Assembly: GCF_003334255.1 (NCBI RefSeq)
Contig: NZ_QOWU01000027.1
Source: Escherichia coli
GTDB lineage: Bacteria > Pseudomonadota > Gammaproteobacteria > Enterobacterales > Enterobacteriaceae
Reading direction: 5' to 3' (one strand)
Length of the DNA stretch: 60,537 nt
Shown piece by piece: positions 2,361 to 16,948 of this stretch. Numbering within the stretch: position 1 is the first letter of the stretch; each line of letters begins with the position of its first letter. The translations under genes were made by a program, and so were the position numbers. Under the pieces are notes generated by a model that worked only from the letters and a program-made list of their open reading frames with translations, did not search any database and had not been told where the DNA came from.

Positions 2361-5300
2361 ATGGACAAGGAATTACCGTGGCTGGCGGATAACGCCCAAC
2401 TGGAACTGAAATATAAAAAAGGCAAAACGCCGCTCAGTCATCGTCGCTGGCCGGGCGAACCAGTGTCCGTTATCACTGGAAGTCTCATCCAGACATTGGG
2501 TGATGAATTGCTACAAAAAGCTGAGAAGAAAAAAAACATTGTCTGGCGTTATGAGAATTTTTCACTGGAGTGGCAGTCCGCCATCACGCAGGCCATCAAC
2601 TTGATCGGCGAACACAAACCCTCAATCCCGGCCCGGACAATGGCGGCGCTAGCCTGTATCGCGCAAAATGACAGCCAACAGTTGCTCGACGAAATCGTCC
2701 AACAAGAGGGGCTGGAATATGCGACTGAGGTGGTGATTGCACGCCAGTTTATTGCGCGGTGTTATGAGAGTGATCCTCTGGTAGTGACATTGCAGTATCA
2801 GGACGAGGATTATGGCTATGGTTATCGCTCAGAAACCTATAACGAATTCGATCTCCGACTGCGTAAGCATCTCTCTCTGGCAGAGGAAAGCTGCTGGCAG
2901 CGTTGCGCCGACAAACTCATTGCCGCACTACCAGGAATAACCAAAGTTCGCCGCCCTTTTATTGCGCTGATCCTCCCGGAAAAACCAGAAATAGCCAATG
3001 AGTTGGTAGGCCTTGAATGCCCGCGAACTCATTTTCATTCTAAGGAGTGGTTAAAAGTTGTTGCTAATGACCCCACAGCGGTGAGAAAACTCGAACACTA
3101 CTGGAGCCAGGATATATTTAGCGATCGAGAAGCCAGCTACATGTCGCATGAAAACCACTTCGGCTACGCGGCCTGCGCCGCCCTTTTGCGCGAACAAGGA
3201 CTGGCAGCCATTCCGCGCCTCGCGATGTATGCCCATAAAGAAGATTGCGGCAGTCTGCTGGTACAAATTAACCATCCGCAAGTCATCCGCACCTTGCTAC
3301 TGGTGGCTGATAAAAACAAACCCAGCCTGCAACGTGTGGCTAAATACAGTAAAAACTTCCCCCATGCGACGCTCGCCGCACTGGCAGAACTGCTGGCGTT
3401 AACAGAACCACCAGCCCGCCCTGGTTATCCAATCATCGAAGACAAAAAGCTGCCTGCACAGCAAAAAGCACGCGATGAATACTGGCGTACGCTGTTACAA
3501 ACGCTGATGGCATCGCAGCCACAACTGGCAGCAGAAGTGATGCCGTGGTTAAGTACTCAACCCCAGTCAGTGCTGAAGAGTTATTTATCGGCACCGCCCA
3601 AACCGGTTATTGATGGCACCGATAACAGCAATCTGCCAGAAATCCTCGTTTCACCACCGTGGCGTAGTAAGAAAAAAATGACAGCTCCACGTCTTGATTT
3701 GGCACCGCTCGAATTAACTCCGCAAGTTTACTGGCAACCAGGCGAACAAGAGAGGCTTGCCGCCACTGAGCCTGCCCGTTATTTCAGCACGGAATCTCTT
3801 GCGCAACGCATGGAACAAAAAAGTGGACGAGTTGTATTACAGGAACTGGGTTTTGGGGATGATGTATGGCTGTTTCTGAATTATATACTCCCCGGAAAAC
3901 TGGATGCTGCACGCAATTCACTCATTGTTCAGTGGCATTACTACCAGGGGCGGGTTGAAGAGATCCTGAATGGCTGGAACTCCCCGGAAGCACAATTAGC
4001 AGAACAGGCGCTCCGCAGCGGTCACATAGAAGCGTTAATTAACATATGGGAAAATGACAACTACTCACGTTATCGTCCGGAAAAGAGTGTCTGGAACCTG
4101 TATTTATTGGCACAGTTGCCGCGTGAGATGGCTTTGACCTTCTGGCTGCGTATCAATGAGAAAAAGCATCTGTTCGCGGGTGAGGACTATTTTCTCAGTA
4201 TCCTCGGATTGGATGCGCTACCAGGTCTGCTGTTGGCTTTTTCACATCGTCCAAAAGAAACATTTCCGTTAATTTTAAATTTCGGCGCAACAGAACTGGC
4301 CCTGCCCGTTGCCCGCGTCTGGCACCGTTTTGCGGGCCAGCGTAATCTGGCTCGCCAGTGGATTTTACAATGGCCGGAACATACGGCTACTGCACTTATT
4401 CCACTCGTCTTTGTTAAACCCTGCGACAACAGCGAAGCGGCATTATTTGCCCTTCGTTTACTGTATGAACAAGGACATAGTGAATTACTGCAAACGGTTG
4501 CAAACCGCTGGGATCGCGCTGATATGTGGCCAGCCCTGGAAAAAATACTTACCCAGAACCCGATGGAAATTTACCCGGCACGCATTCCAAAAGCCCCTGA
4601 TTTCTGGCATCCGCAAATGTGGTCCAGGCCGCGCCTTATCACTAATAATCAAACTGTTACCAATGACGCTCTGGAAATTATCGGCGAAATGCTGCGCTTT
4701 ACCCAGGGGGGACGTTTTTATAGCGGGCTGGAACAACTGAAAACGTTCTGCCAGCCACAAACGCTGGCAGCTTTTGCCTGGGATCTCTTCACTGCGTGGC
4801 AACAAGCTGGTGCCCCCGCAAAAGACAACTGGGCATTTCTGGCGTTAAGTCTCTTTGGTGACGAAAGCACGGCACGGGATCTGACGACACAGATCCTCGC
4901 CTGGCCACAAGAAGGCAAATCTGCCCGTGCTGTCAGCGGCCTGAACATCCTTACCCTGATGAATAATGATATGGCGCTGATACAGCTGCATCATATATCG
5001 CAACGGGCTAAATCCCGCCCCTTACGTGATAACGCGGCGGAATTTCTTCAGGTGGTCGCAGAAAATCGCGGGCTAAGCCAGGAAGAGCTAGCGGACAGAT
5101 TAGTCCCAACCCTGGGCCTTGATGATCCGCAGGCGTTGAGTTTTGATTTTGGTCCCCGGCAGTTTACCGTTCGCTTCGATGAAAATCTCAACCCGGTTAT
5201 CTTTGATCAGCAAAACGTTCGCCAGAAAAGCGTTCCCCGTTTGCGCGCCGATGACGATCAACTGAAAGCGCCCGAGGCACTGGCCCGACTAAAAGGGCTA

Positions 5301-5993
5301 AAAAAAGATGCTACTCAGGTGAGCAAAAACCTGCTCCCGCGTCTTGAAACGGCCCTACGTACCACCCGACGCTGGTCGCTGGCAGATTTTCATTCTCTGT
5401 TTGTTAATCATCCCTTTACCCGTCTGGTTACCCAGCGATTAATATGGGGGGTTTATCCGGCAAATGAACCGCGTTGTTTACTCAAAGCCTTTCGTGTGGC
5501 CGCAGAGGGGGAGTTCTGCAATGCGCAAGATGAGCCAATTGACCTGCCTGCGGACGCTCTGATTGGCATTGCCCACCCGTTAGAAATGACAGCAGAAATG
5601 CGCAGTGAATTTGCACAGCTTTTTGCCGATTACGAAATTATGCCGCCTTTTCGCCAGTTGTCGCGCCGCACGGTGCTGCTCACACCTGACGAGTCAACCA
5701 GTAACAGCCTGACTCGCTGGGAAGGTAAATCCGCTACCGTTGGGCAACTTATGGGAATGCGATACAAAGGCTGGGAGTCAGGCTATGAGGACGCATTTGT
5801 CTATAACCTGGGTGAGTACCGGCTGGTCCTTAAGTTTTCACCCGGTTTTAACCACTACAATGTTGATAGCAAAGCGCTAATGAGCTTCCGTTCTCTTCGA
5901 GTGTACCGTGACAATAAATCCGTCACTTTTGCCGAACTTGATGTGTTTGATTTGAGTGAGGCGTTAAGCGCACCTGACGTCATTTTCCATTAA
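2361..5993 (+). CDS. yehI: Large (1210 aa) uncharacterised DUF4132-type protein YehI
   Basis: Single long ORF with AAGGA Shine-Dalgarno 8 nt upstream of the ATG. Length and sequence match my recollection of K-12 YehI. It is the intact paralogue of the upstream pseudogene. Confidence 0.93.
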   Translation: MDKELPWLADNAQLELKYKKGKTPLSHRRWPGEPVSVITGSLIQTLGDELLQKAEKKKNIVWRYENFSLEWQSAITQAINLIGEHKPSIPARTMAALACIAQNDSQQLLDEIVQQEGLEYATEVVIARQFIARCYESDPLVVTLQYQDEDYGYGYRSETYNEFDLRLRKHLSLAEESCWQRCADKLIAALPGITKVRRPFIALILPEKPEIANELVGLECPRTHFHSKEWLKVVANDPTAVRKLEHYWSQDIFSDREASYMSHENHFGYAACAALLREQGLAAIPRLAMYAHKEDCGSLLVQINHPQVIRTLLLVADKNKPSLQRVAKYSKNFPHATLAALAELLALTEPPARPGYPIIEDKKLPAQQKARDEYWRTLLQTLMASQPQLAAEVMPWLSTQPQSVLKSYLSAPPKPVIDGTDNSNLPEILVSPPWRSKKKMTAPRLDLAPLELTPQVYWQPGEQERLAATEPARYFSTESLAQRMEQKSGRVVLQELGFGDDVWLFLNYILPGKLDAARNSLIVQWHYYQGRVEEILNGWNSPEAQLAEQALRSGHIEALINIWENDNYSRYRPEKSVWNLYLLAQLPREMALTFWLRINEKKHLFAGEDYFLSILGLDALPGLLLAFSHRPKETFPLILNFGATELALPVARVWHRFAGQRNLARQWILQWPEHTATALIPLVFVKPCDNSEAALFALRLLYEQGHSELLQTVANRWDRADMWPALEKILTQNPMEIYPARIPKAPDFWHPQMWSRPRLITNNQTVTNDALEIIGEMLRFTQGGRFYSGLEQLKTFCQPQTLAAFAWDLFTAWQQAGAPAKDNWAFLALSLFGDESTARDLTTQILAWPQEGKSARAVSGLNILTLMNNDMALIQLHHISQRAKSRPLRDNAAEFLQVVAENRGLSQEELADRLVPTLGLDDPQALSFDFGPRQFTVRFDENLNPVIFDQQNVRQKSVPRLRADDDQLKAPEALARLKGLKKDATQVSKNLLPRLETALRTTRRWSLADFHSLFVNHPFTRLVTQRLIWGVYPANEPRCLLKAFRVAAEGEFCNAQDEPIDLPADALIGIAHPLEMTAEMRSEFAQLFADYEIMPPFRQLSRRTVLLTPDESTSNSLTRWEGKSATVGQLMGMRYKGWESGYEDAFVYNLGEYRLVLKFSPGFNHYNVDSKALMSFRSLRVYRDNKSVTFAELDVFDLSEALSAPDVIFH

Positions 5994-6000
5994 AACACAG

Positions 6001-6022
6001 CGGGCAGTGATGCAACTGCCCG
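6001..6022 (+). terminator. Hairpin just after the yehI stop (CGGGCAGT / ACTGCCCG, 6-nt loop); a weak terminator or attenuator
   Basis: Perfect 8-bp inverted repeat read directly from the sequence. The downstream tract is only weakly T-rich. Confidence 0.3.
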
Positions 6023-6053
6023 TTATCAACACGACTTACCAGCGGGGAAAGCG

Positions 6054-6371
6054 ATGATCGTGCAAAAAGAGCTGGTTGCTATTTACGATTATGAGGTCCC
6101 TGTACCTGAAGATCCGTTTTCCTTCAGACTTGAGATCCATAAATGCTCTGAATTATTTACAGGTTCCGTCTATCGACTGGAGCGATTCCGGCTACGTCCA
6201 ACATTTCATCAACGTGATCGAGAAGATGCTGACCCGCTAATAAATGATGCGTTGATTTATATAAGAGATGAGTGTATTGATGAGCGGAAATTACGAGGTG
6301 AATCACCTGAAACTGTAATAGCAATTTTTAATCGTGAACTACAGAATATATTCAACCAAGAAATAGAATAA
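6054..6371 (+). CDS. yehK: Small uncharacterised protein YehK (105 aa)
   Basis: ORF with GGGGAAAG upstream of the ATG. It is visibly more AT-rich than the flanking genes. Matches recalled K-12 YehK. Confidence 0.8.
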   Translation: MIVQKELVAIYDYEVPVPEDPFSFRLEIHKCSELFTGSVYRLERFRLRPTFHQRDREDADPLINDALIYIRDECIDERKLRGESPETVIAIFNRELQNIFNQEIE

Positions 6372-6448
6372 TATACTCTAAATAATTCAAATTGGTCCGA
6401 TCCGGCGCAACGTCCCAATGGCCTGGATTATAAATCTCATTATCTTAA

Positions 6449-6477
6449 TTGCAACGGGGTCCAGCCGTGGTTATAAT
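6449..6477 (+). promoter_or_regulatory. Near-consensus sigma70 promoter in the yehK-yehL intergenic region
   Basis: TTGCAA (6449-6454), a 17-bp spacer, then a perfect TATAAT (6472-6477). Confidence 0.5.
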
Positions 6478-6483
6478 TCGTTC

Positions 6484-6570
6484 GTTGGAACACGATGTTG
6501 CACAGGCTGTGGTGTTAGGCCTGAAAATAGTAAATAAAAGAACCTGCCTCACCAGCAGGTTTTTTTATTT
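6484..6570 (+). ncRNA. Candidate ~85-nt sRNA or terminated leader transcript upstream of yehL
   Basis: Predicted start ~7 nt after the TATAAT. Internal hairpin CAGGC/GCCTG (6503-6507 / 6519-6523), an A/U-rich linker (6524-6540), and an intrinsic terminator ACCTGC/GCAGGT (6542-6547 / 6555-6560) followed by a T-run (6560-6566). Confidence 0.35.
6542..6570 (+). terminator. Rho-independent terminator
   Basis: 6-bp GC-rich stem, 7-nt loop, then seven T residues; read directly from the sequence. Confidence 0.7.
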
Positions 6571-6677
6571 ACTGTGATCTGCTTTCCAGATATTTTTCGC
6601 TCAAACAACTAATGCGCCAAACATTTATTGCGCGTAAAATATCGTTTATTTCATTAATACATTTCAGGGATGAATAT

Positions 6678-7766
6678 ATGTCACCGCAGAATAATCATCT
6701 GCAGCGTCCGCCTGCTGCTGTGTTATACGCCGATGAACTGGCAAAATTAAAACAAAATGATAACGCACCTTGCCCGCCCGGTTGGCAGTTAAGTTTGCCT
6801 GCGGCCCGTGCTTTTATCCTTGGCGACGAAGCGCAAAATATCAGCCGTAAAGTGGTGATTAGCCCCTCCGCTGTCGAACGTATGTTAGTCACTCTTGCTA
6901 CCGGCCGCGGTTTGATGTTGGTGGGGGAACCGGGTACCGCAAAATCTCTTCTTTCTGAATTACTGGCAACCGCTATTAGCGGCGATGCCGGGTTAACCAT
7001 CCAGGGCGGGGCATCTACCACCGAAGATCAAATCAAGTATGGCTGGAACTACGCCCTGCTTATCAATCATGGTCCGTCAACGGAAGCGCTGGTCCCTGCC
7101 CCGCTTTATCAGGGAATGCGCGACGGCAAAATCGTCCGTTTCGAAGAGATAACGCGTACACCGCTGGAAGTGCAGGACTGTCTGTTAGGTATGCTTTCTG
7201 ACAGGGTGATGACGGTGCCGGAACTCACTGGTGAAGCCAGTCAGCTCTATGCGCGAGAAGGCTTTAATATTATTGCCACTGCCAATACCCGCGATCGCGG
7301 CGTCAATGAAATGAGTGCTGCGCTAAAGCGTCGCTTCGATTTTGAAACGGTTTTTCCGATTATGGATTTCGCCCAGGAGTTGGAACTGGTCGCCAGTGCT
7401 TCGGCGCGTTTGCTGGCCCATAGCGGTATTCCGCATAAAGTGCCTGACGCGGTACTGGAATTACTGGTCCGCACCTTCCGCGATCTGCGTGCCAACGGCG
7501 AAAAGAAAACGTCAATGGATACACTGACAGCGATTATGTCCACCGCTGAAGCCGTGAACGTGGCCCATGCTGTGGGCGTCCGCGCCTGGTTTTTAGCGAA
7601 TCGCGCGGGGGAGCCTGCCGACCTGGTGGAATGTATTGCCGGAACCATCGTCAAAGATAACGAAGAAGATCGCGCGCGTCTGCGCCGTTACTTCGAACAG
7701 CGTGTCGCCACACATAAAGAAGCTCACTGGCAGGCTTATTATCAAGCCCGCCACCGCCTGCCGTGA
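6678..7766 (+). CDS. yehL: MoxR-family AAA+ ATPase YehL (362 aa)
   Basis: Walker A GEPGTAKS (6924-6947), a RFEE Walker-B-like motif, ATANTRD sensor-1 and the AALKRRF MoxR/AAA_5 signature. The ATG at 6678 has AGGGA upstream. The longer ORF start at 6612 lacks support. Confidence 0.92.
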   Translation: MSPQNNHLQRPPAAVLYADELAKLKQNDNAPCPPGWQLSLPAARAFILGDEAQNISRKVVISPSAVERMLVTLATGRGLMLVGEPGTAKSLLSELLATAISGDAGLTIQGGASTTEDQIKYGWNYALLINHGPSTEALVPAPLYQGMRDGKIVRFEEITRTPLEVQDCLLGMLSDRVMTVPELTGEASQLYAREGFNIIATANTRDRGVNEMSAALKRRFDFETVFPIMDFAQELELVASASARLLAHSGIPHKVPDAVLELLVRTFRDLRANGEKKTSMDTLTAIMSTAEAVNVAHAVGVRAWFLANRAGEPADLVECIAGTIVKDNEEDRARLRRYFEQRVATHKEAHWQAYYQARHRLP

Positions 7767-7776
7767 GGAAAGATGC

Positions 7777-10056
7777 ATGAGCGAGCCGTTAATTGTCGGC
7801 ATCCGGCATCATAGTCCGGCCTGCGCCCGGCTGGTGAAATCGTTAATCGAAAGCCAGCGGCCACGATACGTGTTGATTGAAGGCCCGGCTGATTTTAATG
7901 ACCGGGTAGACGAACTGTTTTTAGCCCACCAGCTTCCGGTAGCTATTTACAGTTATTGCCAGTATCAGGACGGTGCAGCCCCCGGGCGTGGTGCCTGGAC
8001 GCCATTTGCTGAATTTTCGCCGGAGTGGCAGGCGCTACAAGCCGCACGTCGCATTCAGGCACAAACTTACTTCATCGATTTGCCTTGCTGGGCGCAGAGT
8101 GAAGAAGAGGACGATTCGCCTGATACGCAAGATGAAAGCCAGGCCTTACTGCTGCGTGCCACCCGCATGGATAACAGCGATACCCTGTGGGATCACTTGT
8201 TCGAAGATGAAAGCCAGCAAACTGCATTACCCTCTGCGCTGGCGCACTATTTTGCCCAACTGCGGGGCGACGCCTCCGGCGATGCGCTCAATCGTCAGCG
8301 CGAAGCCTTTATGGCCCGCTGGATTGGATGGGCGATGCAGCAAAATAATGGCGACGTGTTAGTTGTCTGCGGTGGCTGGCACGCTCCGGCACTGGCAAAG
8401 ATGTGGCGCGAATGCCCTCAGAAAATTAACAAGCCAGAATTGCCCTCGCTGGCAGATGCCGTTACAGGTTGTTATCTCACACCCTACAGTGAAAAGCGCC
8501 TTGATGTGCTGGCAGGATACCTTTCAGGAATGCCTGCCCCGGTATGGCAAAACTGGTGCTGGCAGTGGGGCTTGCAGAAGGCCGGTGAACAACTGCTAAA
8601 AACTATCCTTACCCGTTTGCGCCAGCACAAATTGCCCGCTTCTACCGCGGATATGGCTGCCGCTCATCTGCATGCGATGGCGCTGGCACAGTTGCGCGGT
8701 CATACACTACCGTTACGCACTGACTGGCTGGATGCCATAGCAGGCTCGCTGATTAAAGAAGCCCTGAACGCGCCGTTGCCGTGGAGCTATCGCGGCGTTA
8801 TTCATCCCGATACCGATCCGATTCTGCTAACGTTGATAGACACATTAGCGGGTGACGGATTCGGTAAACTTGCCCCTTCTACGCCACAACCGCCTCTGCC
8901 AAAAGATGTCACCTGCGAACTGGAACGTACCGCAATCTCCCTTCCGGCGGAGCTTACCTTAAATCGCTTTACCCCCGATGGGCTGGCGCAAAGTCAGGTG
9001 TTACATCGGCTGGCAATACTGGAGATCCCTGGGATTGTACGCCAGCAGGGAAGTACACTGACACTTGCAGGCAACGGTGAAGAACGCTGGAAATTAACCC
9101 ACCCGCTTAGCCAGCATGCGGCATTGATTGAGGCCGCCTGCTTTGGCGCCACGCTCCAGGAAGCCGCACGCAATAAATTAGAAGCCGATATGCTGGACGC
9201 GGGTGGAATCGGCTGCATCACCGCATGTCTTAGCCAGGCGGCGTTAGCGAGTCTGGCGTCCTTCAGTCAACAATTACTGAAGCAACTCACGTTATTAATC
9301 GCCCAGGAAAATCAATTTGCCGAAATGGGCCCGGCGCTGGAAGTGCTATATGCCTTATGGCGGCTGGATGAAATTAGCGGTATGCAAGGTGCGCAGATAT
9401 TACAAACGACGTTATGCGCGGCTATCGATCGCACGCTGTGGCTGTGTGAATCCAACGGCAGACCGGATGAAAAGGAGTTTCACGCTCACCTGCATAGCTG
9501 GCAAGCGTTGTGCCATATTCTGCGCGATCTGCATAGCGGCGTTAATTTACCCGGCGTTTCTCTTTCTGCGGCGGTAGCCTTACTGGAGCGACGCAGTCAG
9601 GCGATTCATGCCCCGGCGCTGGATCGCGGCGCGACTCTTGGTGCGCTGATGCGTCTGGAACATCCCAACGCCAGTGCCGAAGCGGCGCTGACAATGCTGG
9701 CGCAGTTATCCCCGGCACAATCCGGCGAGGCGCTGCACGGTTTGCTGGCATTAGCCCGTCATCAACTGGCCTGTCAGCCGGCATTTATCGCCGGTTTCAG
9801 CAGTCATTTAAATCAACTAAGTGATGCCGATTTTACCAATGCCCTGCCCGATTTACGCGCGGCAATGGCCTGGCTACCGCCACGAGAACGCGGGACGCTG
9901 GCGCATCAGGTGCTTGAGCATTATCAACTGGCGCAACTTCCCGTTTCGGCACTGCAAATGCCGTTGCATTGTCCACCGCAAGCCATTGCACATCATCAAC
10001 AACTCGAACAGCAGGCACTGGCATCGCTGCAACACTGGGGAGTTTTCCATGTCTGA
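7777..10056 (+). CDS. yehM: Uncharacterised 759-aa protein YehM
   Basis: ATG 10 nt after the yehL stop, with GAGGAA upstream. N-terminal motifs are VGIRHHSP and VVCGGWHAP. The C-terminal ~500 aa are Leu/Ala-rich and look helical. Confidence 0.9.
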   Translation: MSEPLIVGIRHHSPACARLVKSLIESQRPRYVLIEGPADFNDRVDELFLAHQLPVAIYSYCQYQDGAAPGRGAWTPFAEFSPEWQALQAARRIQAQTYFIDLPCWAQSEEEDDSPDTQDESQALLLRATRMDNSDTLWDHLFEDESQQTALPSALAHYFAQLRGDASGDALNRQREAFMARWIGWAMQQNNGDVLVVCGGWHAPALAKMWRECPQKINKPELPSLADAVTGCYLTPYSEKRLDVLAGYLSGMPAPVWQNWCWQWGLQKAGEQLLKTILTRLRQHKLPASTADMAAAHLHAMALAQLRGHTLPLRTDWLDAIAGSLIKEALNAPLPWSYRGVIHPDTDPILLTLIDTLAGDGFGKLAPSTPQPPLPKDVTCELERTAISLPAELTLNRFTPDGLAQSQVLHRLAILEIPGIVRQQGSTLTLAGNGEERWKLTHPLSQHAALIEAACFGATLQEAARNKLEADMLDAGGIGCITACLSQAALASLASFSQQLLKQLTLLIAQENQFAEMGPALEVLYALWRLDEISGMQGAQILQTTLCAAIDRTLWLCESNGRPDEKEFHAHLHSWQALCHILRDLHSGVNLPGVSLSAAVALLERRSQAIHAPALDRGATLGALMRLEHPNASAEAALTMLAQLSPAQSGEALHGLLALARHQLACQPAFIAGFSSHLNQLSDADFTNALPDLRAAMAWLPPRERGTLAHQVLEHYQLAQLPVSALQMPLHCPPQAIAHHQQLEQQALASLQHWGVFHV

Positions 10057-11185
10057 ACTGAACGATCTTCTGACCACCCGTGAGCTACAACGCTGGCGAT
10101 TAATTCTTGGCGAAGCGGCAGAAACGACGCTTTGTGGGCTGGATGACAACGCCCGGCAGATAGACCACGCGCTGGAGTGGCTGTATGGGCGCGATCCTGA
10201 ACGGCTCCAGCGTGGTGAACGCTCCGGTGGATTAGGTGGCTCAAATCTCACCACCCCTGAGTGGATCAACAGTATTCACACGCTGTTTCCGCAACAGGTG
10301 ATTGAGCGGCTGGAAAGCGATGCCGTACTGCGCTACGGCATTGAAGATGTGGTGACAAATCTCGACGTGCTGGAACGTATGCAGCCTTCCGAAAGCCTGC
10401 TACGCGCCGTTTTGCACACCAAACATCTGATGAATCCCGAAGTACTGGCTGCCGCCCGCCAGATAGTGCGCCAGGTTGTTGAAGAAATTATGGCGCGACT
10501 GGCAAAGGAAGTTCGCCAGGCTTTTTCTGGTGTCCGCGATCGCCGTCGCCGTTCATTTGTTCCACTGGCGCGAAACTTTGATTTCAAAAGTACTCTGCGC
10601 GCCAACCTGCAACACTGGCACCCGCAACACGGCAAGTTGTATATCGAATCCCCCCGCTTTAACAGCCGCATTAAACGCCAAAGCGAACAATGGCAACTGG
10701 TCTTACTGGTTGATCAAAGCGGCTCGATGGTCGATTCGGTGATCCACTCTGCGGTGATGGCGGCCTGTTTGTGGCAGTTACCCGGCATTCGTACCCATCT
10801 GGTGGCGTTTGACACAAGCGTCGTTGATCTCACGGCAGACGTTGCCGATCCGATAGAGTTATTAATGAAAGTGCAATTAGGCGGCGGAACCAATATCGCC
10901 AGTGCCATGGAGTATGGTCGGCAACTTATTGAACAACCTGAAAAAAGCGTCATTATCCTAGTGAGCGATTTTTATGAAGGGGGTTCATCATCATTGCTGA
11001 CGCATCAGGTGAAAAAGTGTGTCCAGAGCGGCATCAAAGTGCTGGGACTGGCAGCGCTCGATAGCACAGCAACGCCTTGCTATGACCGCGATACGGCCCA
11101 GGCGCTGGTTAATGTCGGCGCACAAATAGCCGCCATGACACCGGGCGAGCTGGCATCATGGCTTGCGGAGAATCTTCAGTCATGA
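10049..11185 (+). CDS. yehP: von Willebrand factor A (VWA) domain protein YehP (378 aa)
   Basis: MIDAS DQSGS (10712-10726), with downstream GGGTNI and VSDFYEGG. The start overlaps the yehM stop by 8 nt (ATGTCTGA). Confidence 0.92.
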   Translation: MSELNDLLTTRELQRWRLILGEAAETTLCGLDDNARQIDHALEWLYGRDPERLQRGERSGGLGGSNLTTPEWINSIHTLFPQQVIERLESDAVLRYGIEDVVTNLDVLERMQPSESLLRAVLHTKHLMNPEVLAAARQIVRQVVEEIMARLAKEVRQAFSGVRDRRRRSFVPLARNFDFKSTLRANLQHWHPQHGKLYIESPRFNSRIKRQSEQWQLVLLVDQSGSMVDSVIHSAVMAACLWQLPGIRTHLVAFDTSVVDLTADVADPIELLMKVQLGGGTNIASAMEYGRQLIEQPEKSVIILVSDFYEGGSSSLLTHQVKKCVQSGIKVLGLAALDSTATPCYDRDTAQALVNVGAQIAAMTPGELASWLAENLQS

Positions 11186-13182
11186 ATTCACTACGTCCGG
11201 AATTATTAGAACTGACACCGCAGGCACTGACGGCGTTAAGCAATGCCGGTTTTGTTAAGCGCAGTCTTAAGGAACTGGAAAATGGCAACGTCCCGGAAAT
11301 CAGCCATGAGAACGGCGCTTTAATCGCCACCTTCAGTGACGGTGTCCATACCCAGCTGGCGAACGGCCAGGCACTGAAAGAGGCTCAGTGCACCTGTGGG
11401 GCCAGCGGCATGTGCCGTCATCGCGTGATGCTGGTGTTAAGTTATCAACGACTTTGTGCTACCGCCCAGCCTACGGGAAAAGAAGAGGAATGGGATCCGG
11501 CAATCTGGCTGGAAGAACTGGCTACCCTTCCCGATGCCACCCGCAAACGCGCACAGGTATTGGTCGCTAAAGGCATCACCATTGAGTTGTTATGTGCGCC
11601 GGGTGAAATTCCCTCTGCCCGCTTACCGATGAGCGATGTGCGTTTTTATTCCCGCAGCAGTATTCGTTTCGCCCGTTGTGATTGTATTGAAGGCACACTT
11701 TGCGAACATGTCGTACTGGCTGTGCAGGCCTTCGTCGAGGCCAAAGCGCAGCAAGCGGAATTTACTCATTTAATCTGGCAGATGCGCAGCGAACACGTCA
11801 CATCATCTGACGATCCGTTTGCCAGCGAAGAGGGCAACGCGTGTCGTCAATATGTTCAGCAATTAAGCCAGACATTATGGCTTGGCGGCATCAGCCAGCC
11901 GCTTATTCACTACGAGGCAGCATTCAACCGCGCATTGCAGGCGGCAGAGACCTGCAACTGGCGCTGGGTGAGTGAATCGCTACGGCAACTGCGCGCCAGC
12001 GTTGATGCCTTCCACGCCCGCGCCAGCCACTATAATGCCGGAGAATGCTTACATCAGCTTGCGGCATTAAACAGTCGATTAAATTGCGCACAAGAGATGG
12101 CCCGGCGCGACAGTATTGGTGAAGTTCCTCCTGTGCCGTGGCGCACGGTCGTTGGCTCTGGCATTGCCGGAGAAGCAAAGCTTGATCATCTGCGGCTGGT
12201 GTCTTTAGGTATGCGTTGCTGGCAGGATATTGAGCATTATGGTTTACGCATCTGGTTTACCGATCCCGACACCGGCAGTATTTTGCACCTTTCGCGCAGT
12301 TGGCCGCGAAGTGAACAGGAAAACTCACCGGCAGCTACGCGTCGGCTGTTTAGTTTTCAGGCTGGCGCACTGGCGGGCGGGCAAATTGTTTCACAAGCAG
12401 CAAAACGCAGTGCCGATGGCGAGCTGCTGTTAGCTACCCGCAACCGCTTAAGCAGCGTTGTGCCGCTGTCGCCTGATGCCTGGCAAATGTTGAGCGCGCC
12501 GTTACGCCAGCCGGGCATTGTGGCTTTGCGGGAATATTTACGCCAGCGTCCCCCCGCCTGCATACGGCCTCTTAATCAGGTCGATAACTTATTTATTCTG
12601 CCGGTCGCTGAGTGTATTTCGCTCGGTTGGGATAGCAGCCGCCAGACGCTGGATGCGCAGGTAATCAGCGGCGAAGGTGAAGATAATCTGCTGACGTTAT
12701 CACTGCCAGCCTCAGCCAGCGCGCCTTATGCCGTTGAACGCATGGCGGCGCTTTTGCAACAAACAGACGACCCCGTGTGTCTGGTTTCTGGCTTTGTCAG
12801 TTTTGTTGATGGGCAATTGACACTGGAACCACAGGTAATTATGACAAAGACTCGTGCCTGGGCGCTGGACGCTGAAACTGCGCCTGTGGCACCACTACCT
12901 TCTGCCAGCGTTTTGCCTGTGCCGTCTACTGCTCATCAGTTGCTGATGCGCTGCCAGGCGTTACTTATTCAACTGCTCCATAACGGCTGGCGCTATCAGG
13001 AACAGAGCGCTATTAGTCAGGCAGAGTTGCTGGCGAATGACCTCACCGCGGTGGGTTTTTATCGGCTGGCACATGTGTTGGGGCAATTTCGTAATACAGA
13101 AAGCGAGGCACGGGTAGAAGCAATAAATAACGGTGTTTTGCTTTGCGAACAATTATTCCCCATGCTTCAGCAACAAGGATGA
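11182..13182 (+). CDS. yehQ: SWIM zinc-finger protein YehQ
   Basis: Two CxCx5CxH SWIM motifs: CTCGASGMCRH (11389-11421) and CDCIEGTLCEH (11677-11709). The ATG overlaps the yehP stop in an ATGA junction. The start choice (11182 versus 11158) is inferred from that coupling. Confidence 0.88.
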   Translation: MNSLRPELLELTPQALTALSNAGFVKRSLKELENGNVPEISHENGALIATFSDGVHTQLANGQALKEAQCTCGASGMCRHRVMLVLSYQRLCATAQPTGKEEEWDPAIWLEELATLPDATRKRAQVLVAKGITIELLCAPGEIPSARLPMSDVRFYSRSSIRFARCDCIEGTLCEHVVLAVQAFVEAKAQQAEFTHLIWQMRSEHVTSSDDPFASEEGNACRQYVQQLSQTLWLGGISQPLIHYEAAFNRALQAAETCNWRWVSESLRQLRASVDAFHARASHYNAGECLHQLAALNSRLNCAQEMARRDSIGEVPPVPWRTVVGSGIAGEAKLDHLRLVSLGMRCWQDIEHYGLRIWFTDPDTGSILHLSRSWPRSEQENSPAATRRLFSFQAGALAGGQIVSQAAKRSADGELLLATRNRLSSVVPLSPDAWQMLSAPLRQPGIVALREYLRQRPPACIRPLNQVDNLFILPVAECISLGWDSSRQTLDAQVISGEGEDNLLTLSLPASASAPYAVERMAALLQQTDDPVCLVSGFVSFVDGQLTLEPQVIMTKTRAWALDAETAPVAPLPSASVLPVPSTAHQLLMRCQALLIQLLHNGWRYQEQSAISQAELLANDLTAVGFYRLAHVLGQFRNTESEARVEAINNGVLLCEQLFPMLQQQG

Positions 13183-13260: not shown

Positions 13261-13283
13261 CTGGTGAGAGTCACCAGTTTCTT
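13261..13283 (+). terminator. Intrinsic terminator after yehQ
   Basis: CTGGTGA-GAG-TCACCAG perfect hairpin followed by TTTCTT. Confidence 0.6.
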
Positions 13284-13306
13284 GATTAAATAAAATGGAG
13301 TTTTAC

Positions 13307-13768
13307 ATGAAGGCTTTCAATAAGCTGTTTTCCCTCGTTGTTGCATCTGTTCTGGTTTTCTCTCTTGCTGGCTGCGGTGACAAAGAAGAATCGAAGAAAT
13401 TCAGCGCCAATCTGAACGGCACTGAAATTGCCATTACCTATGTCTACAAAGGTGACAAGGTGCTTAAGCAATCTTCTGAAACCAAAATTCAATTTGCCTC
13501 CATTGGTGCAACCACCAAAGAAGATGCTGCCAGGGCACTTGAGCCGTTAAGCGCCAAATACAAAAACATCGCGGGTGTTGAAGAAAAATTAACCTATACC
13601 GATACCTACGCGCAGGAAAACGTGACTATCGATATGGAAAAAGTGGATTTTAAAGCCCTGCAGGGTATTTCAGGAATCAACGTTTCTGCTGAAGATGCCA
13701 AAAAAGGTATCACTATGGCGCAAATGGAACTGGTGATGAAAGCCGCTGGTTTTAAAGAAGTGAAATAA
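13307..13768 (+). CDS. yehR: Lipoprotein YehR (153 aa)
   Basis: Signal peptide ending in the lipobox SLAGC. GGAG lies 6 nt upstream of the ATG at 13307. Confidence 0.9.
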   Translation: MKAFNKLFSLVVASVLVFSLAGCGDKEESKKFSANLNGTEIAITYVYKGDKVLKQSSETKIQFASIGATTKEDAARALEPLSAKYKNIAGVEEKLTYTDTYAQENVTIDMEKVDFKALQGISGINVSAEDAKKGITMAQMELVMKAAGFKEVK

Positions 13769-13774
13769 TCTGTC

Positions 13775-13799
13775 GGCGGCCATGTTTCGCATGGCCGCC
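13775..13799. terminator. Bidirectional hairpin between the convergent genes yehR and yehS
   Basis: GGCGGCCATG-tttcg-CATGGCCGCC, a perfect 10-bp stem. Confidence 0.65.
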
Positions 13800-13808
13800 A
13801 TACCCGTC

Positions 13809-14279
13809 TTAGCTTTTCTTCACATGCTGGCGCGCTGCCAGTCCACGCAGAAAATAACGTAAAAATTGATCGCCGCATTCGCGGAAGTTTTTATGATCCG
13901 GTGCACGCATCATCGCCGTAATTTCCGGCATCGAAACGCGGAACTGCTGTTCGGTGAGGATCGCCAGAATGTCATCGGTTTTCAGCGAAAACGCGATGCG
14001 TAATTTTTTCAGCACGATGTTGTTATTAATGCGACGTTCCGGCTCCAGTGCCGGAGCAGACTCATCCTTGCCGCGTTTTTCATAAATCAGGCCATTGAGG
14101 AATGACGACAAAACAATGTCCGGACAACGCTGAAAACCCTCTTCGTCTTCTTTACGTAGCCAGACGGCGATCTGTTCCGCGGTGGCTTCGACATTACCCA
14201 GCGCCAGAATACGCACCAGGTCATTATTATTGGCTTTCAAAATGTAGCGCACGCTGCGCAGAATATCGTTACTTAGCAT
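13809..14279 (-). CDS. yehS: DUF1456-family protein YehS (156 aa)
   Basis: ORF starting MLSNDILRSVRYILK. Matches recalled K-12 YehS. The upstream 19-codon extension in the ORF track is unsupported. Confidence 0.88.
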   Translation of the reverse strand: MLSNDILRSVRYILKANNNDLVRILALGNVEATAEQIAVWLRKEDEEGFQRCPDIVLSSFLNGLIYEKRGKDESAPALEPERRINNNIVLKKLRIAFSLKTDDILAILTEQQFRVSMPEITAMMRAPDHKNFRECGDQFLRYFLRGLAARQHVKKS

Positions 14280-14325
14280 GAGGCCTTCAGGTGTTGATGA
14301 GGCAAAAAGCCATTTTAGCAGTCTT

Positions 14326-15045
14326 TTACAGGCCAATCGCCTCTTTTAAGCTTTTCAGATAACGGCGGCTGACCGGCACGGTTAAGCCATTACGCAAAAT
14401 CAACTCGGCCTGGCCGTTATCTTCCAGACGAATCTCCTGTAAATGCGCGAGGTTAACCAGATACTGACGATGGCAGCGCAGTAGTGGTGTACGACTTTCC
14501 AGGGTACGTAATGTCAATTCGGTAAAGCCCTCTTTCCCTTCGTGGCTGGTAACGTAGACACCGCTCATCCGACTGCTGACAAATGCCACATCTTTCATTT
14601 GCAGCAAATAAATCCGACTATGCCCAGTACAAGGGATAAATTTCAGCGCCTGTTGATTTTCTGGTAACAGCGAAACATCCTGCTTGCTGCGTTCCTGCCG
14701 CAAACGCGCCAGCGTTTTCTCCAGTCGCGCTTCATCAATTGGCTTCAGCAGATAATCAAAGGCGTGTTCTTCAAAGGCTTTAATGGCGTATTCGTCAAAC
14801 GCGGTGAGAAAAACAATATACGGACGATGTTCCGGGTCGAGCATCCCCACCATTTCCAGACCACTGATGCGCGGCATCTGGATATCGAGAAACAGCACAT
14901 CCGGGCGCAGTTTATGCACCGCGCCGATCCCTTCCACGGCGTTTGAACACTCACCAACGATTTCAATATCGCTCTGCTCCTGCAAAAATACGCGCAGGTT
15001 CTCCCGTGCTAACGGTTCATCATCGACAATTAAGACTTTAATCAT
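14326..15045 (-). CDS. btsR: LytTR-type response regulator BtsR (YehT)
   Basis: Receiver domain ([18 protein letters not shown]) plus a C-terminal LytTR domain. ATGA overlap with the btsS stop. Confidence 0.95.
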
Positions 15046-16727
15046 GCCTCGTCCCTCCATGGTAGTCGTAACGTTATTCGGGTGTAACTATCAGGCTCAC
15101 AGGCGACGCTTATCCCATAGTCATCGCCAAACCGTTCACGTAAACGCTTATCCACCAGATTCATCCCCAGCCCACTGGCATTGGTTACCGGTTGATACAA
15201 ACCGGCATTGTCTTCGATCTCCAGCATTAAATGTTGCCCCTCACGTCGGGCGCTGATTGCCACTCGCCCTGTATCCAGCAGTTGTGATGTCCCATGTTTA
15301 ATGGCGTTTTCCACTATCGGTTGCAGGGTAAACGCGGGCAATTGCTGCTGGGATAATTCTTGCGGAATAGCAATGTTGACCTGCAACCGCGACTGGAAGC
15401 GCGCCTTTTCAATTTGCAGATAAGCATTCACATGTTCAATTTCGTCGGCGAGAGTAACAAACTCCGAAGGCCGCTTTAAGTTTTTGCGGAAAAAAGTGGA
15501 AAGATACTGCACCAGCTGGCTGGCCTGTTCGCTGTCGCGACGGATCACCGCTTTAATGGTGTTAAGCGCATTAAACAAAAAATGGGGATTCACCTGGGCG
15601 TGAAGCAGTTTGATCTCTGACTGGGTGAGCATCGCTTTTTGCCGCTCATATTGCCCGGCAAGGATCTGCGCCGAAAGCAGTTGCGCAATCCCCTCGCCCA
15701 GCGTGCGGTTGATTGAACTGAATAAACGGTTTTTGGCTTCATACAATTTGATGGTGCCCATCACCCGCTGATTTTCACCACGCAACGGAATTACCAGCGT
15801 CGACCCCAGTTTGCATTGCGGATGCAAAGAGCAACGGTAAGGTACTTCGTTGCCATCAGCGTAGACCACTTCACCGGTTTCAATCGCTTTTAAGGTATAA
15901 GTCGAAGAAATCGGTTTGCCGGGTAAATGGTGGTCGTCACCAATTCCGGTAAAGGCCAGCAATTTCTCTCGATCGGTAATCGCGACTGCACCAATATCCA
16001 GCTCCTGATACAGCACCTGTGCCACTTTCATGCTGTTCACTTCGTTAAACCCCTGGCGCAAAATGCCTTCCGTCGAGGCCGCCACTTTCAGCGCAGTGGC
16101 AGAAAAAGCTGAAGTGTATTTTTCAAACATCGCGCGTTTATCGAGCAATATACGCATAAACAGCGCCGCGCCGACGGTATTGGTGACCATCATTGGCGCA
16201 GCAATATTACTCACCAGACGTACCGCATCTTCATAAGGTCGGGCGATCGCCAGGATGATCAACATTTGCACCATTTCAGCGACGAACGTGACGGCACCGG
16301 CGGTAATGGGGTTAAAGACTTTATCAGTGCGCCCGCGACGGATCAGGATGCTGTGTACCAGGCCGCCGAGCAATCCTTCAACGATGGTTGAGATCATGCA
16401 ACTTAGCGCGGTCATGCCCCCCATCGAATATCGATGTAAGCCGCCGGTCAGACCAACCAGCCCACCGACGACCGGACCGCCGAGTAAGCCGCCCATTACC
16501 GCGCCTATCGCACGGGTATTGGCAATAGAATCGTCAATGTGCAACCCAAACCAGGTGCCCATGATGCAGAAGATGGAAAAGACGATGTAGCAGAGAAATT
16601 TATGCGGCAGACGAACCGTGACCTGCATTAACGGTATGAATAATGGCGTTTTACTCATTAACCACGCAATGACTAAAAAAACGCACATCTGCTGAAGCAG
16701 CAGCAACACCAGATTAAAATCGTACAT
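15042..16727 (-). CDS. btsS: LytS-type sensor histidine kinase BtsS (YehU), pyruvate sensing
   Basis: N-terminal multi-TM 5TM-LytS region, a GAF-like segment, the [11 protein letters not shown]-box and an ATPase domain. Confidence 0.95.
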
Positions 16728-16948
16728 ACCCGCAAACCACACTTCCCTTTAAAACGCGTAACATACATTGCCTGCGTTTAACTTTCTTTGAACTCTTGCA
16801 GAAAAATGAGAATTCGTGAGTACGATCACTCAAAATCGCCTGGCAAAAATAAAATCACCCTATAGATGCACAAAAAACGGGCAAAACTACCTGGTTCGCA
16901 AAACTGCGTCTAAAGTTAAACCGGGACCTCGCGAGCAAGGGTGAGACG

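Follow-up and report, generated by a model that had tools for sequence, protein, structure and literature searches.

We analysed a 60,537-nucleotide stretch of the Escherichia coli chromosome (contig NZ_QOWU01000027.1; the whole stretch is called the window below) that carries the genes yehL, yehM, yehP and yehQ, and found that these genes are part of a conserved five-gene module. The fifth conserved component is a giant DUF4132 protein, represented in E. coli by YehI and MolR. The module keeps its composition, gene order and tight coupling in at least five bacterial phyla. The parts of the module, which are a MoxR-type AAA+ ATPase (YehL), a von Willebrand factor A (VWA) protein with a metal ion-dependent adhesion site, MIDAS (YehP), a predicted TIKI-type domain on an alpha-solenoid (YehM), a SWIM-finger protein (YehQ) and the DUF4132 partner, suggest, in place of an ordinary chaperone for enzyme maturation, a DNA-sensing machine that is so far uncharacterised.

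Gene order and conservation of the module

All genes of the module lie on the plus strand of the window. The four-gene cassette consists of yehL (6678-7766, 362 amino acids), yehM (7777-10056, 759 amino acids), yehP (10049-11185, 378 amino acids) and yehQ (11182-13182, 666 amino acids). A gap of 10 nt (7767-7776) separates yehL from yehM, the overlap ATGTCTGA (10049-10056) joins yehM to yehP, and an ATGA overlap (11182-11185) joins yehP to yehQ. These open reading frames (ORFs) and junctions stand exactly where the original prediction, made from the sequence by eye, had placed them. Every motif that it quoted for the four proteins was found as well, and across about 80 homologous loci these motifs varied little or not at all. 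Upstream lies yehI (2361-5993; 1210 amino acids, with a DUF4132 domain at residues 954-1138, Pfam E 2.2e-47). The four cassette genes and yehI are full length in the window, and every catalytic residue is intact. Over 13.3 kb the window was 100% identical to E. coli strain G1/2.

For the comparison between genomes we aligned 20 YehM homologues, fetched 80 genomic loci and searched the ORFs of each locus with profiles made from the E. coli proteins. The loci came from Gammaproteobacteria, Betaproteobacteria, Myxococcota, Actinobacteria, Acidobacteria and one metagenome-assembled genome (MAG) of Desulfuromonadaceae. The gene census was restricted to the 65 loci with complete flanks; YehL and YehP were counted at the domain level, since shadow ORFs mask them in genomes with high GC content.

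Homologues of YehL and YehP flanked YehM in all 65 loci, and a YehQ homologue was present in at least 62. The earlier claim of a fixed, translationally coupled cassette is therefore borne out, as the four genes do travel as a unit. The conserved unit is larger than claimed, however: genes for DUF4132 proteins, one to four in tandem per locus, were found in 60 of the 65 loci, nearly always directly upstream of the yehL homologue and on the same strand. Median spacings, estimated from BLAST offsets in about 75 loci, were about +59 nt between the DUF4132 gene and yehL, +11 nt between yehL and yehM, -16 nt between yehM and yehP, and -4 nt between yehP and yehQ. The tight coupling is thus not peculiar to E. 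coli.

Independent gene calls in Iodobacter and Serratia gave the same order of WGR+DUF4132, AAA_5, DUF5682, VWA_CoxE and YehQ-like genes, and deposited annotations of Bacillus mycoides and Streptomyces also showed all five genes together. A distant version in Proteus, with YehM only 29% identical, had all five genes in an operon. The order in Sinorhizobium was permuted to AAA, DUF5682, DUF4132, VWA, SWIM.

Besides these regular cases, we observed some variants. The locus of Sinorhizobium sp. RAC02 (L086, 7872-18360) is situated on the conjugative plasmid pBSY16_2. Three Myxococcota MAGs (L061, L068 and L072) carried YehL, YehM and YehP, with YehQ profile matches that were partial or weak, and no DUF4132 gene was found within 10 kb in L057, L066, L068, L072 and L073. 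The loci with weak YehQ matches or no DUF4132 gene could represent reduced forms of the module, or could result from faulty ORF calls in high-GC DNA.

The DUF4132 partner and its WGR domain

The DUF4132 proteins linked to the cassette were 1,100-1,400 amino acids long, and 23 of the 37 that were sampled had an N-terminal WGR domain (Pfam, best E 8.9e-20). The profile of this partner matched the structure 2ra8 (E 1e-20) and the WGR domain of PARP3 (E 1.1e-3), as well as that of PARP1. The WGR domain was also the only match in sequence searches of the PDB made with YehM, YehQ, YehI and YehP and with profiles of YehM, YehQ and YehI.

Intact E. coli loci have two full WGR+DUF4132 genes ("molR") between metG and yehI. 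In the window there is a disrupted, molR-like DUF4132 paralogue on the plus strand at 127-2351, frameshifted near the 3' end and read as ORFs at 127-1983 and 2010-2351. Its 5' part is replaced by the end of an IS4-family insertion sequence (1-77, an IS421-like match), and other E. coli genomes match the window from base 78 only.

SWIM fingers and a beta-rich region in YehQ

YehQ matched the SWIM family (Pfam, E 3.7e-07), with the model detecting the first of two CxCx5CxH fingers. The fingers are encoded on the plus strand at 11389-11421 (C70, C72, C78, H80) and 11677-11709 (C166, C168, C174, H176), and all eight ligand residues were invariant in 18 homologues. The structure model (mean predicted local distance difference test score, pLDDT, 75.6; predicted template modelling score, pTM, 0.41) places a helical bundle after the fingers, another helical bundle at the C terminus, and a beta-rich region at about residues 330-561 (12169-12864, plus strand) that is predicted to form tandem OB folds. 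The best Foldseek match of this region was the tandem-OB binder of single-stranded DNA (ssDNA) Teb1-AB (E 1.1e-3, probability 1.00, from the model with pTM 0.41); further matches were baculovirus LEF-3, POT1, CTC1, Stn1, RPA32 and bacterial and mitochondrial ssDNA-binding proteins (SSBs). YehQ thus likely carries a tandem OB fold resembling those of ssDNA binders, which is a lead and not proof. The original prediction saw in YehQ a double-SWIM zinc-finger sensor; the two fingers hold, while the protein is likely to be more than such a sensor.

The ATPase YehL and the MIDAS protein YehP

YehL matched AAA_5 (Pfam, E 1.6e-34). Its Walker A motif GEPGTAKS (residues 83-90; 6924-6947, plus strand) was invariant in 78 of 78 aligned homologues, and the motif R-F-E-E and the sensor and arginine motifs A-T-A-N and A-L-K-R-R-F, read in YehL as ATANTRD and AALKRRF, were likewise invariant across 78-80 homologues. 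The R-F-E-E motif (residues 154-157; 7137-7148, plus strand) is the equivalent of Walker B, where all 78 homologues had Glu-Glu in place of the Asp-Glu usual in AAA+ proteins; its F-E-E aligned with the Walker B sequences L-D-E and I-E-D of Midasin. The closest solved relatives were the AAA modules of Midasin (E 6.7e-10), followed by MoxR 2r44. The bpMoxR model of Pfam scored 18.4 bits, below the cut-off of 27. The AAA_5 motifs and the pairing with a VWA gene in 65 of 65 loci place YehL among the MoxR proteins. As had been stated before, YehL gives its name to one of the seven MoxR subfamilies, and it is the second, uncharacterised MoxR protein of E. coli K-12 (PMC3893208).

YehP matched VWA_CoxE (Pfam, E 7.9e-71) over 222 of 222 model positions. 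Its MIDAS is complete: D222, S224, S226, T281 and D307 were invariant in 79-80 homologues, with the DQSGS motif at 10712-10726 (plus strand) followed by the GGGT and SDFYEGG motifs. A weak match to a cobaltochelatase subunit was found in NCBIfam.

Natural fusions of DUF5682, the family of YehM, with VWA_CoxE were found as single chains of 1122-1222 amino acids in metagenomic or genomic clusters (P0301, P0350, P0363 and P0367, at least four clusters at 50% identity). Such fusions argue that YehM and YehP work in contact. By analogy with MoxR-VWA pairs and with Midasin, YehL and YehP would form an ATP-driven remodeller.

The gene yehP also contains a +1 frameshift-prone cassette, GGAGTATGGTCGGC (10909-10922, plus strand), which is an exact match to the core of a published site; +1 frameshifting in yehP of K-12 has been shown with reporters and mass spectrometry (PMC2790909). 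A +1 frameshift at this site would end the product just after the GGGT motif of the MIDAS.

A TIKI-type fold in YehM

YehM matched DUF5682 (Pfam, E 5.9e-98). Its fold search returned an N-terminal alpha/beta domain (about residues 1-245; 7777-8511, plus strand) with the fold of the TIKI/TraB/ChaN/erythromycin-esterase superfamily, followed by a HEAT/ARM-like alpha-solenoid (8512-10056, plus strand), which is a probable scaffold. The earlier observation that the remainder of YehM looks helical is in line with this solenoid. The structures matched by the N-terminal domain were exactly those listed as the TIKI superfamily in PMC6254334, the top one being ChaN, a haem-binding protein, and the domain has a parallel beta-sheet core flanked by helices that could be superposed on known members.

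The domain carries G-x-R-H at residues 8-11 and G-G-x-H at residues 199-202. H11, E35 and H202 were conserved in at least 95% of 78 homologues, as were R175-E176 and several other acidic residues. Active members of the superfamily use a His-Glu pair, and the RRSP motif consists of two His and two Glu; the spacing of H11 and E35 in YehM is like that of the His85-Glu113 pair of Bcr135.

Proposed mechanism and its weighing

We tentatively propose that the module is a DNA-sensing, ATP-driven MoxR-VWA machine that gates a TIKI-type hydrolase, a reading that we prefer to the alternatives below but regard as possible rather than probable. The proposal of DNA sensing is made because three domains of DNA-binding type occur in the module: the WGR domain of the partners, the two SWIM fingers and the region with OB-fold matches. 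The WGR-HEAT-DUF4132 protein or proteins, together with YehQ, would recognise abnormal DNA (ends, nicks or ssDNA), whether produced by damage or brought in as incoming DNA. The YehL ring, coupled through the MIDAS of YehP in the manner of CbbQ-CbbO, NorQ-NorD, RavA-ViaA and, in cis, Midasin, would then spend ATP on remodelling a complex assembled on the YehM solenoid. The TIKI-type domain of YehM, a putative peptidase or esterase, would be the catalytic output, switched on or repositioned by the remodelling. A wider version, which we consider improbable, would make the module a "split midasin" for DNA surveillance in several phyla, with PARP-like WGR and RPA/POT1-like OB parts sensing ends or ssDNA and the AAA+-MIDAS part gating a TIKI protease, either as a new branch of the response to DNA damage or as chromosomal immunity of a new class.

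Published work on regulation touches the module at several points. In hns/stpA mutants both yehL and yehM were de-repressed, and the intergenic region was bound by H-NS, so that the E. coli module would be silenced by H-NS under laboratory conditions (PMC3686432). A published list of genes that LexA regulates and that have a known SOS box includes molR (PMC6590174). We found a LexA-like box, CTGGATAAAATTACAG, in an intact E. coli locus; it precedes the first WGR-DUF4132 gene by 25 nt and fits this listing. The box in E. coli AR_0150 (AACTGGATAAAATTACAGGG, L001 644-663) has one mismatch to CTGT-N8-ACAG and lies in a region absent from the window, and a similar LexA-like box, CTGGATGTATGCACAG, is situated at -21 in Intestinirhabdus alba (L008 4035). 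No perfect CTGT-N8-ACAG box was found in the window or in the intact E. coli locus. In Deinococcus radiodurans, the DUF4132 protein DRA0166 and the WGR protein DR2173 were induced by mitomycin C in an IrrE/DdrO-dependent manner (PMC8533742). It is suggestive that two unrelated DNA-damage regulons control WGR and DUF4132 genes.

Several observations weigh against the proposed mechanism. With respect to regulation, a search for LexA and Cheo boxes near the starts of cassette genes in the 80 loci gave convincing matches in two Enterobacteriaceae only, which does not show an SOS link that would hold generally across taxa. The LexA-like box is upstream of molR and not of yehL, while yehI and yehL of E. 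coli are separated by a terminator and a small RNA (sRNA) gene. With respect to the parts themselves, YehI, the paralogue kept in the window, has no WGR domain by Pfam, and the Glu that RRSP has two positions ahead of its first His is absent from YehM. YehM homologues also stayed below every Pfam threshold of the TIKI clan: the E. coli protein had no match, and the best score came from a Sinorhizobium homologue, which reached 13.6 bits (E 0.07) with Cofac_haem_bdg (ChaN), whose cut-off is 27.7. The claim for YehM is for this reason limited to the fold and a plausible active site, not extended to sequence-based family membership; the likeness to TraB/ChaN/GumN domains put forward in the original prediction holds at the level of the fold and fails at that of sequence profiles. 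Finally, that the proteins bind DNA, form a complex and act as a hydrolase is inference throughout.

Other features of the E. coli locus

Intrinsic terminators had been thought to bracket yehLMPQ. Both hairpins exist, the downstream one being a terminator-like hairpin with a T-tract 3' of yehQ (13261-13283, plus strand; pattern scan and sequence). The upstream hairpin (6542-6570) forms the 3' end of an orphan type I antitoxin sRNA, OrzO (OrzO-P, 6491-6566, plus strand; Rfam RF02083, 99.9 bits against a gathering score of 60), with a promoter-like site at 6449-6477 from the pattern scan. As the terminator of OrzO, it gives no evidence for an operon boundary designed for yehLMPQ, and its role as an operon insulator was rejected. 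The upstream "bracket" is a remnant of an unrelated type I toxin-antitoxin locus. The 29-amino acid ORF of the ZorO toxin (MDTLTQKLTVLIAVLELLVALLRLIDLLK) is present in E. coli AR_0150 (L001 12352-12441, minus strand) and deleted in the window, and the spacer between yehK and yehL is 306 nt in the window compared to 575 nt in AR_0150. An ORF of 39 codons that begins with hydrophobic residues, MAWIINLIILIATG..., overlaps the promoter and the 5' half of OrzO (6418-6537, plus strand); it may be a product of chance.

The gene yehK (6054-6371, plus strand, an ORF of 105 amino acids) had no match in Pfam, NCBIfam or PADLOC. Together with the zor/orz locus, it is inserted between yehI and yehL in E. 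coli. Its homologues were restricted to Escherichia and Shigella loci (L001, L002, L004 and L049); yehK was rejected as a conserved member of the module and is probably outside the module core.

Genomic context and alternative explanations

The original prediction had stated that no client enzyme is encoded in or next to the operon, and no enzyme recurred beside the cassette in the 65 loci. When 2515 flanking ORFs were clustered all against all, nothing but synteny within genera or generic families emerged. Clusters that crossed phyla were rejected as clients, being short-chain dehydrogenases and regulators chained by single linkage. In 120 flanking ORFs, taken from about 30 genera, the most frequent Pfam families occurred three times, and these reflected genus-level synteny or generic short-chain dehydrogenases/reductases.

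The absence of a recurrent neighbour bears directly on a first alternative, that the module is a MoxR-VWA maturation chaperone of the ordinary sort, comparable to NorQ-NorD, CoxD-CoxE, CbbQ-CbbO or CobS-CobT. YehM and YehQ would then be adaptors, and the client would be a distant metalloenzyme or the DUF4132 protein. The full-length CoxE-type match of YehP, its weak cobaltochelatase match, and haem binding by ChaN, the top structural match of YehM, would all suit a chaperone. In characterised MoxR operons the client gene lies upstream, which is the position held by the DUF4132 gene. Every characterised MoxR-VWA pair is, moreover, a client-specific remodeller (PMC3893208). The historical name of MolR, "molybdate metabolism regulator", would hint at the maturation of a molybdoenzyme; the molybdate-metabolism genes of D. 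radiodurans, however, showed no co-variation with the WGR and DUF4132 genes (PMC8533742). The WGR, SWIM, OB-like and TIKI hydrolase domains are also foreign to known metal-insertion systems, and no enzyme family accompanies the cassette. We consider this alternative unlikely.

A second alternative is that of dedicated immunity against phages or mobile elements, of the MoxR-vWA "counter-invader" kind, where diversified DUF4132 paralogues and YehQ would sense the invader, MoxR-VWA would pass on the signal, and the YehM peptidase would be a toxic or abortive effector. Such a scheme of MoxR, vWA, peptidase effector and sensor has a parallel in the literature (PMC12839542). The tandem DUF4132 paralogues, one to four per locus, frequently decay, by insertion sequence and frameshift in the window and as pseudogenes in other strains. 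The distribution across genera is patchy and does not follow taxonomy (E. coli YehM was 47% identical to the Massilia homologue, 43% to that of Aeromicrobium and 48% to that of Serratia), as in horizontal transfer. The GC content of the region is 55-56%, compared to 44-50% in adjacent sequence. In a single comparison of the window strain with ST131 (window 2361-13182 and 13295-16742 against locus L087), the synonymous divergence (dS) was 0.15-0.24 for yehI, yehL, yehM, yehP and yehQ, compared to 0.03-0.09 for the adjacent genes yehR, yehS, btsR and btsS. Silencing of yehL and yehM by H-NS/StpA (PMC3686432) and the presence of a type I toxin-antitoxin locus within the E. coli cluster also agree with immunity.

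On the other hand, no defence context was detectable around the cassette. PADLOC-DB 2.0 gave no match at E of 0.01 or below for any of the six proteins YehI, YehK, YehL, YehM, YehP and YehQ. Defence models matched only a handful of the 120 flanking ORFs, with at most two members per family and no island pattern; the neighbours were housekeeping genes that differed between genera, such as metG, btsSR, metE and efflux pumps. Of 5426 complete E. coli genomes, 5363 carried the cassette as a single copy at the same chromosomal site, which is unlike accessory defence cargo. Carriage by mobile elements was limited to one doubtful phage record, one IMG/VR contig and 39 of 72,556 plasmid records, mostly megaplasmids or mislabelled chromosomes, and no phage phenotype was found in the literature searched. 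The defence reading offered in the original prediction is neither supported nor refuted by these data, and we hold dedicated immunity to be somewhat unlikely.

The flanking ORFs included a few individual matches to defence models: in two of about 30 genera, two ORFs matched MADS models (mad3, E 8e-58) and two others matched MzaA and AriA.

The E. coli cluster could also be a silenced, slowly decaying island of horizontal origin that is functionless in this strain. The reported H-NS/StpA silencing (PMC3686432) and several losses would be explained in this way: the upstream paralogue is destroyed by an insertion sequence and a frameshift, zorO is deleted in the window, yehL and yehM are pseudogenes in AR_0150, and in Shigella the locus is broken into fragments (S. 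flexneri) or has been deleted (lineages of S. sonnei). Yet the four genes and yehI are full length with intact catalytic residues, and 5203 of the 5426 genomes retain at least 80% of the cassette. The ratio of nonsynonymous to synonymous divergence (dN/dS) between the window strain and ST131 was 0.03-0.21 for all five genes. The low dN/dS together with the high dS points to purifying selection within E. coli with unusually deep allelic divergence, the alleles being much older than those of the neighbours. A functionless relic is very unlikely.

Significance

The cassette was already annotated and the YehL subfamily named. In the searchable literature we found neither the composition of five parts, nor the assignment of TIKI and OB folds, nor a reading related to DNA. 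As had been claimed, that literature assigns no function to yehL, yehM, yehP or yehQ. It does not mention DUF5682 and mentions DUF4132 only in passing, and yehQ appeared once as a decoy in an entrapment database and once in a strain list. We found in it no paper on a MoxR and vWA pair with both SWIM and WGR, and no description of a TIKI domain fused to a solenoid in a MoxR-VWA operon.

The genes in question are y-genes of the bacterium that has been studied most, and about 99% of its complete genomes have them. The occurrence of the five-gene module from Bacillus to Streptomyces to myxobacteria redefines the set of genes that should be cloned or deleted together, and with folds assigned, "function unknown" gives way to defined binding assays and point mutants, such as H11A, E35A and H202A of YehM. 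Should the module sense DNA, it would represent a new output of a response of the SOS or radiation/desiccation response (RDR) type, or a new architecture in bacterial immunity. It would also offer a tractable bacterial model of force transmission between an AAA+ ring and a MIDAS, as in Midasin.

Comparison with known systems

With the characterised MoxR-VWA pairs (RavA-ViaA, CbbQ-CbbO, NorQ-NorD and CoxD-CoxE) the module shares an AAA_5/MoxR gene coupled to a VWA gene with a complete MIDAS. It differs from them in having no nearby client in the 65 loci, and its DUF5682 TIKI-solenoid, SWIM-OB and WGR-DUF4132 partners have no counterpart there.

The ternary conflict systems built on MoxR and vWA were reportedly described by Kaur, Burroughs, Iyer and Aravind in 2020. 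In these systems MoxR and vWA are linked to a putative peptidase and to large, fast-evolving components, which is the part they have in common with the module (PMC12839542); the occasional fusion of the TIKI-like DUF5682 to the VWA protein is a further likeness. Unlike them, the module has no beta-propeller, iSTAND or VMAP third component, its bpMoxR score is below threshold, and it has neither a PADLOC match nor the context of a defence island.

YehM appears, from its model, to share the fold of the TIKI superfamily, which comprises Tiki, TraB/PrgY, ChaN, GumN, erythromycin esterases, HopBA1, RRSP and PMT C1-C2. Its domain is, however, fused to a solenoid of 500 residues and encoded inside a MoxR-VWA operon.

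Midasin (Rea1), the AAA+ protein of eukaryotic ribosome assembly, has in common with the module an AAA_5 ring, a long helical element and a MIDAS domain. Midasin differs in carrying six AAA modules in one chain and in having no TIKI, SWIM, OB or WGR parts. The resemblance is one of working principle, not of membership, and it extends to the natural YehM-YehP fusions, in which the helical element is followed by the MIDAS in the same order as in Midasin.

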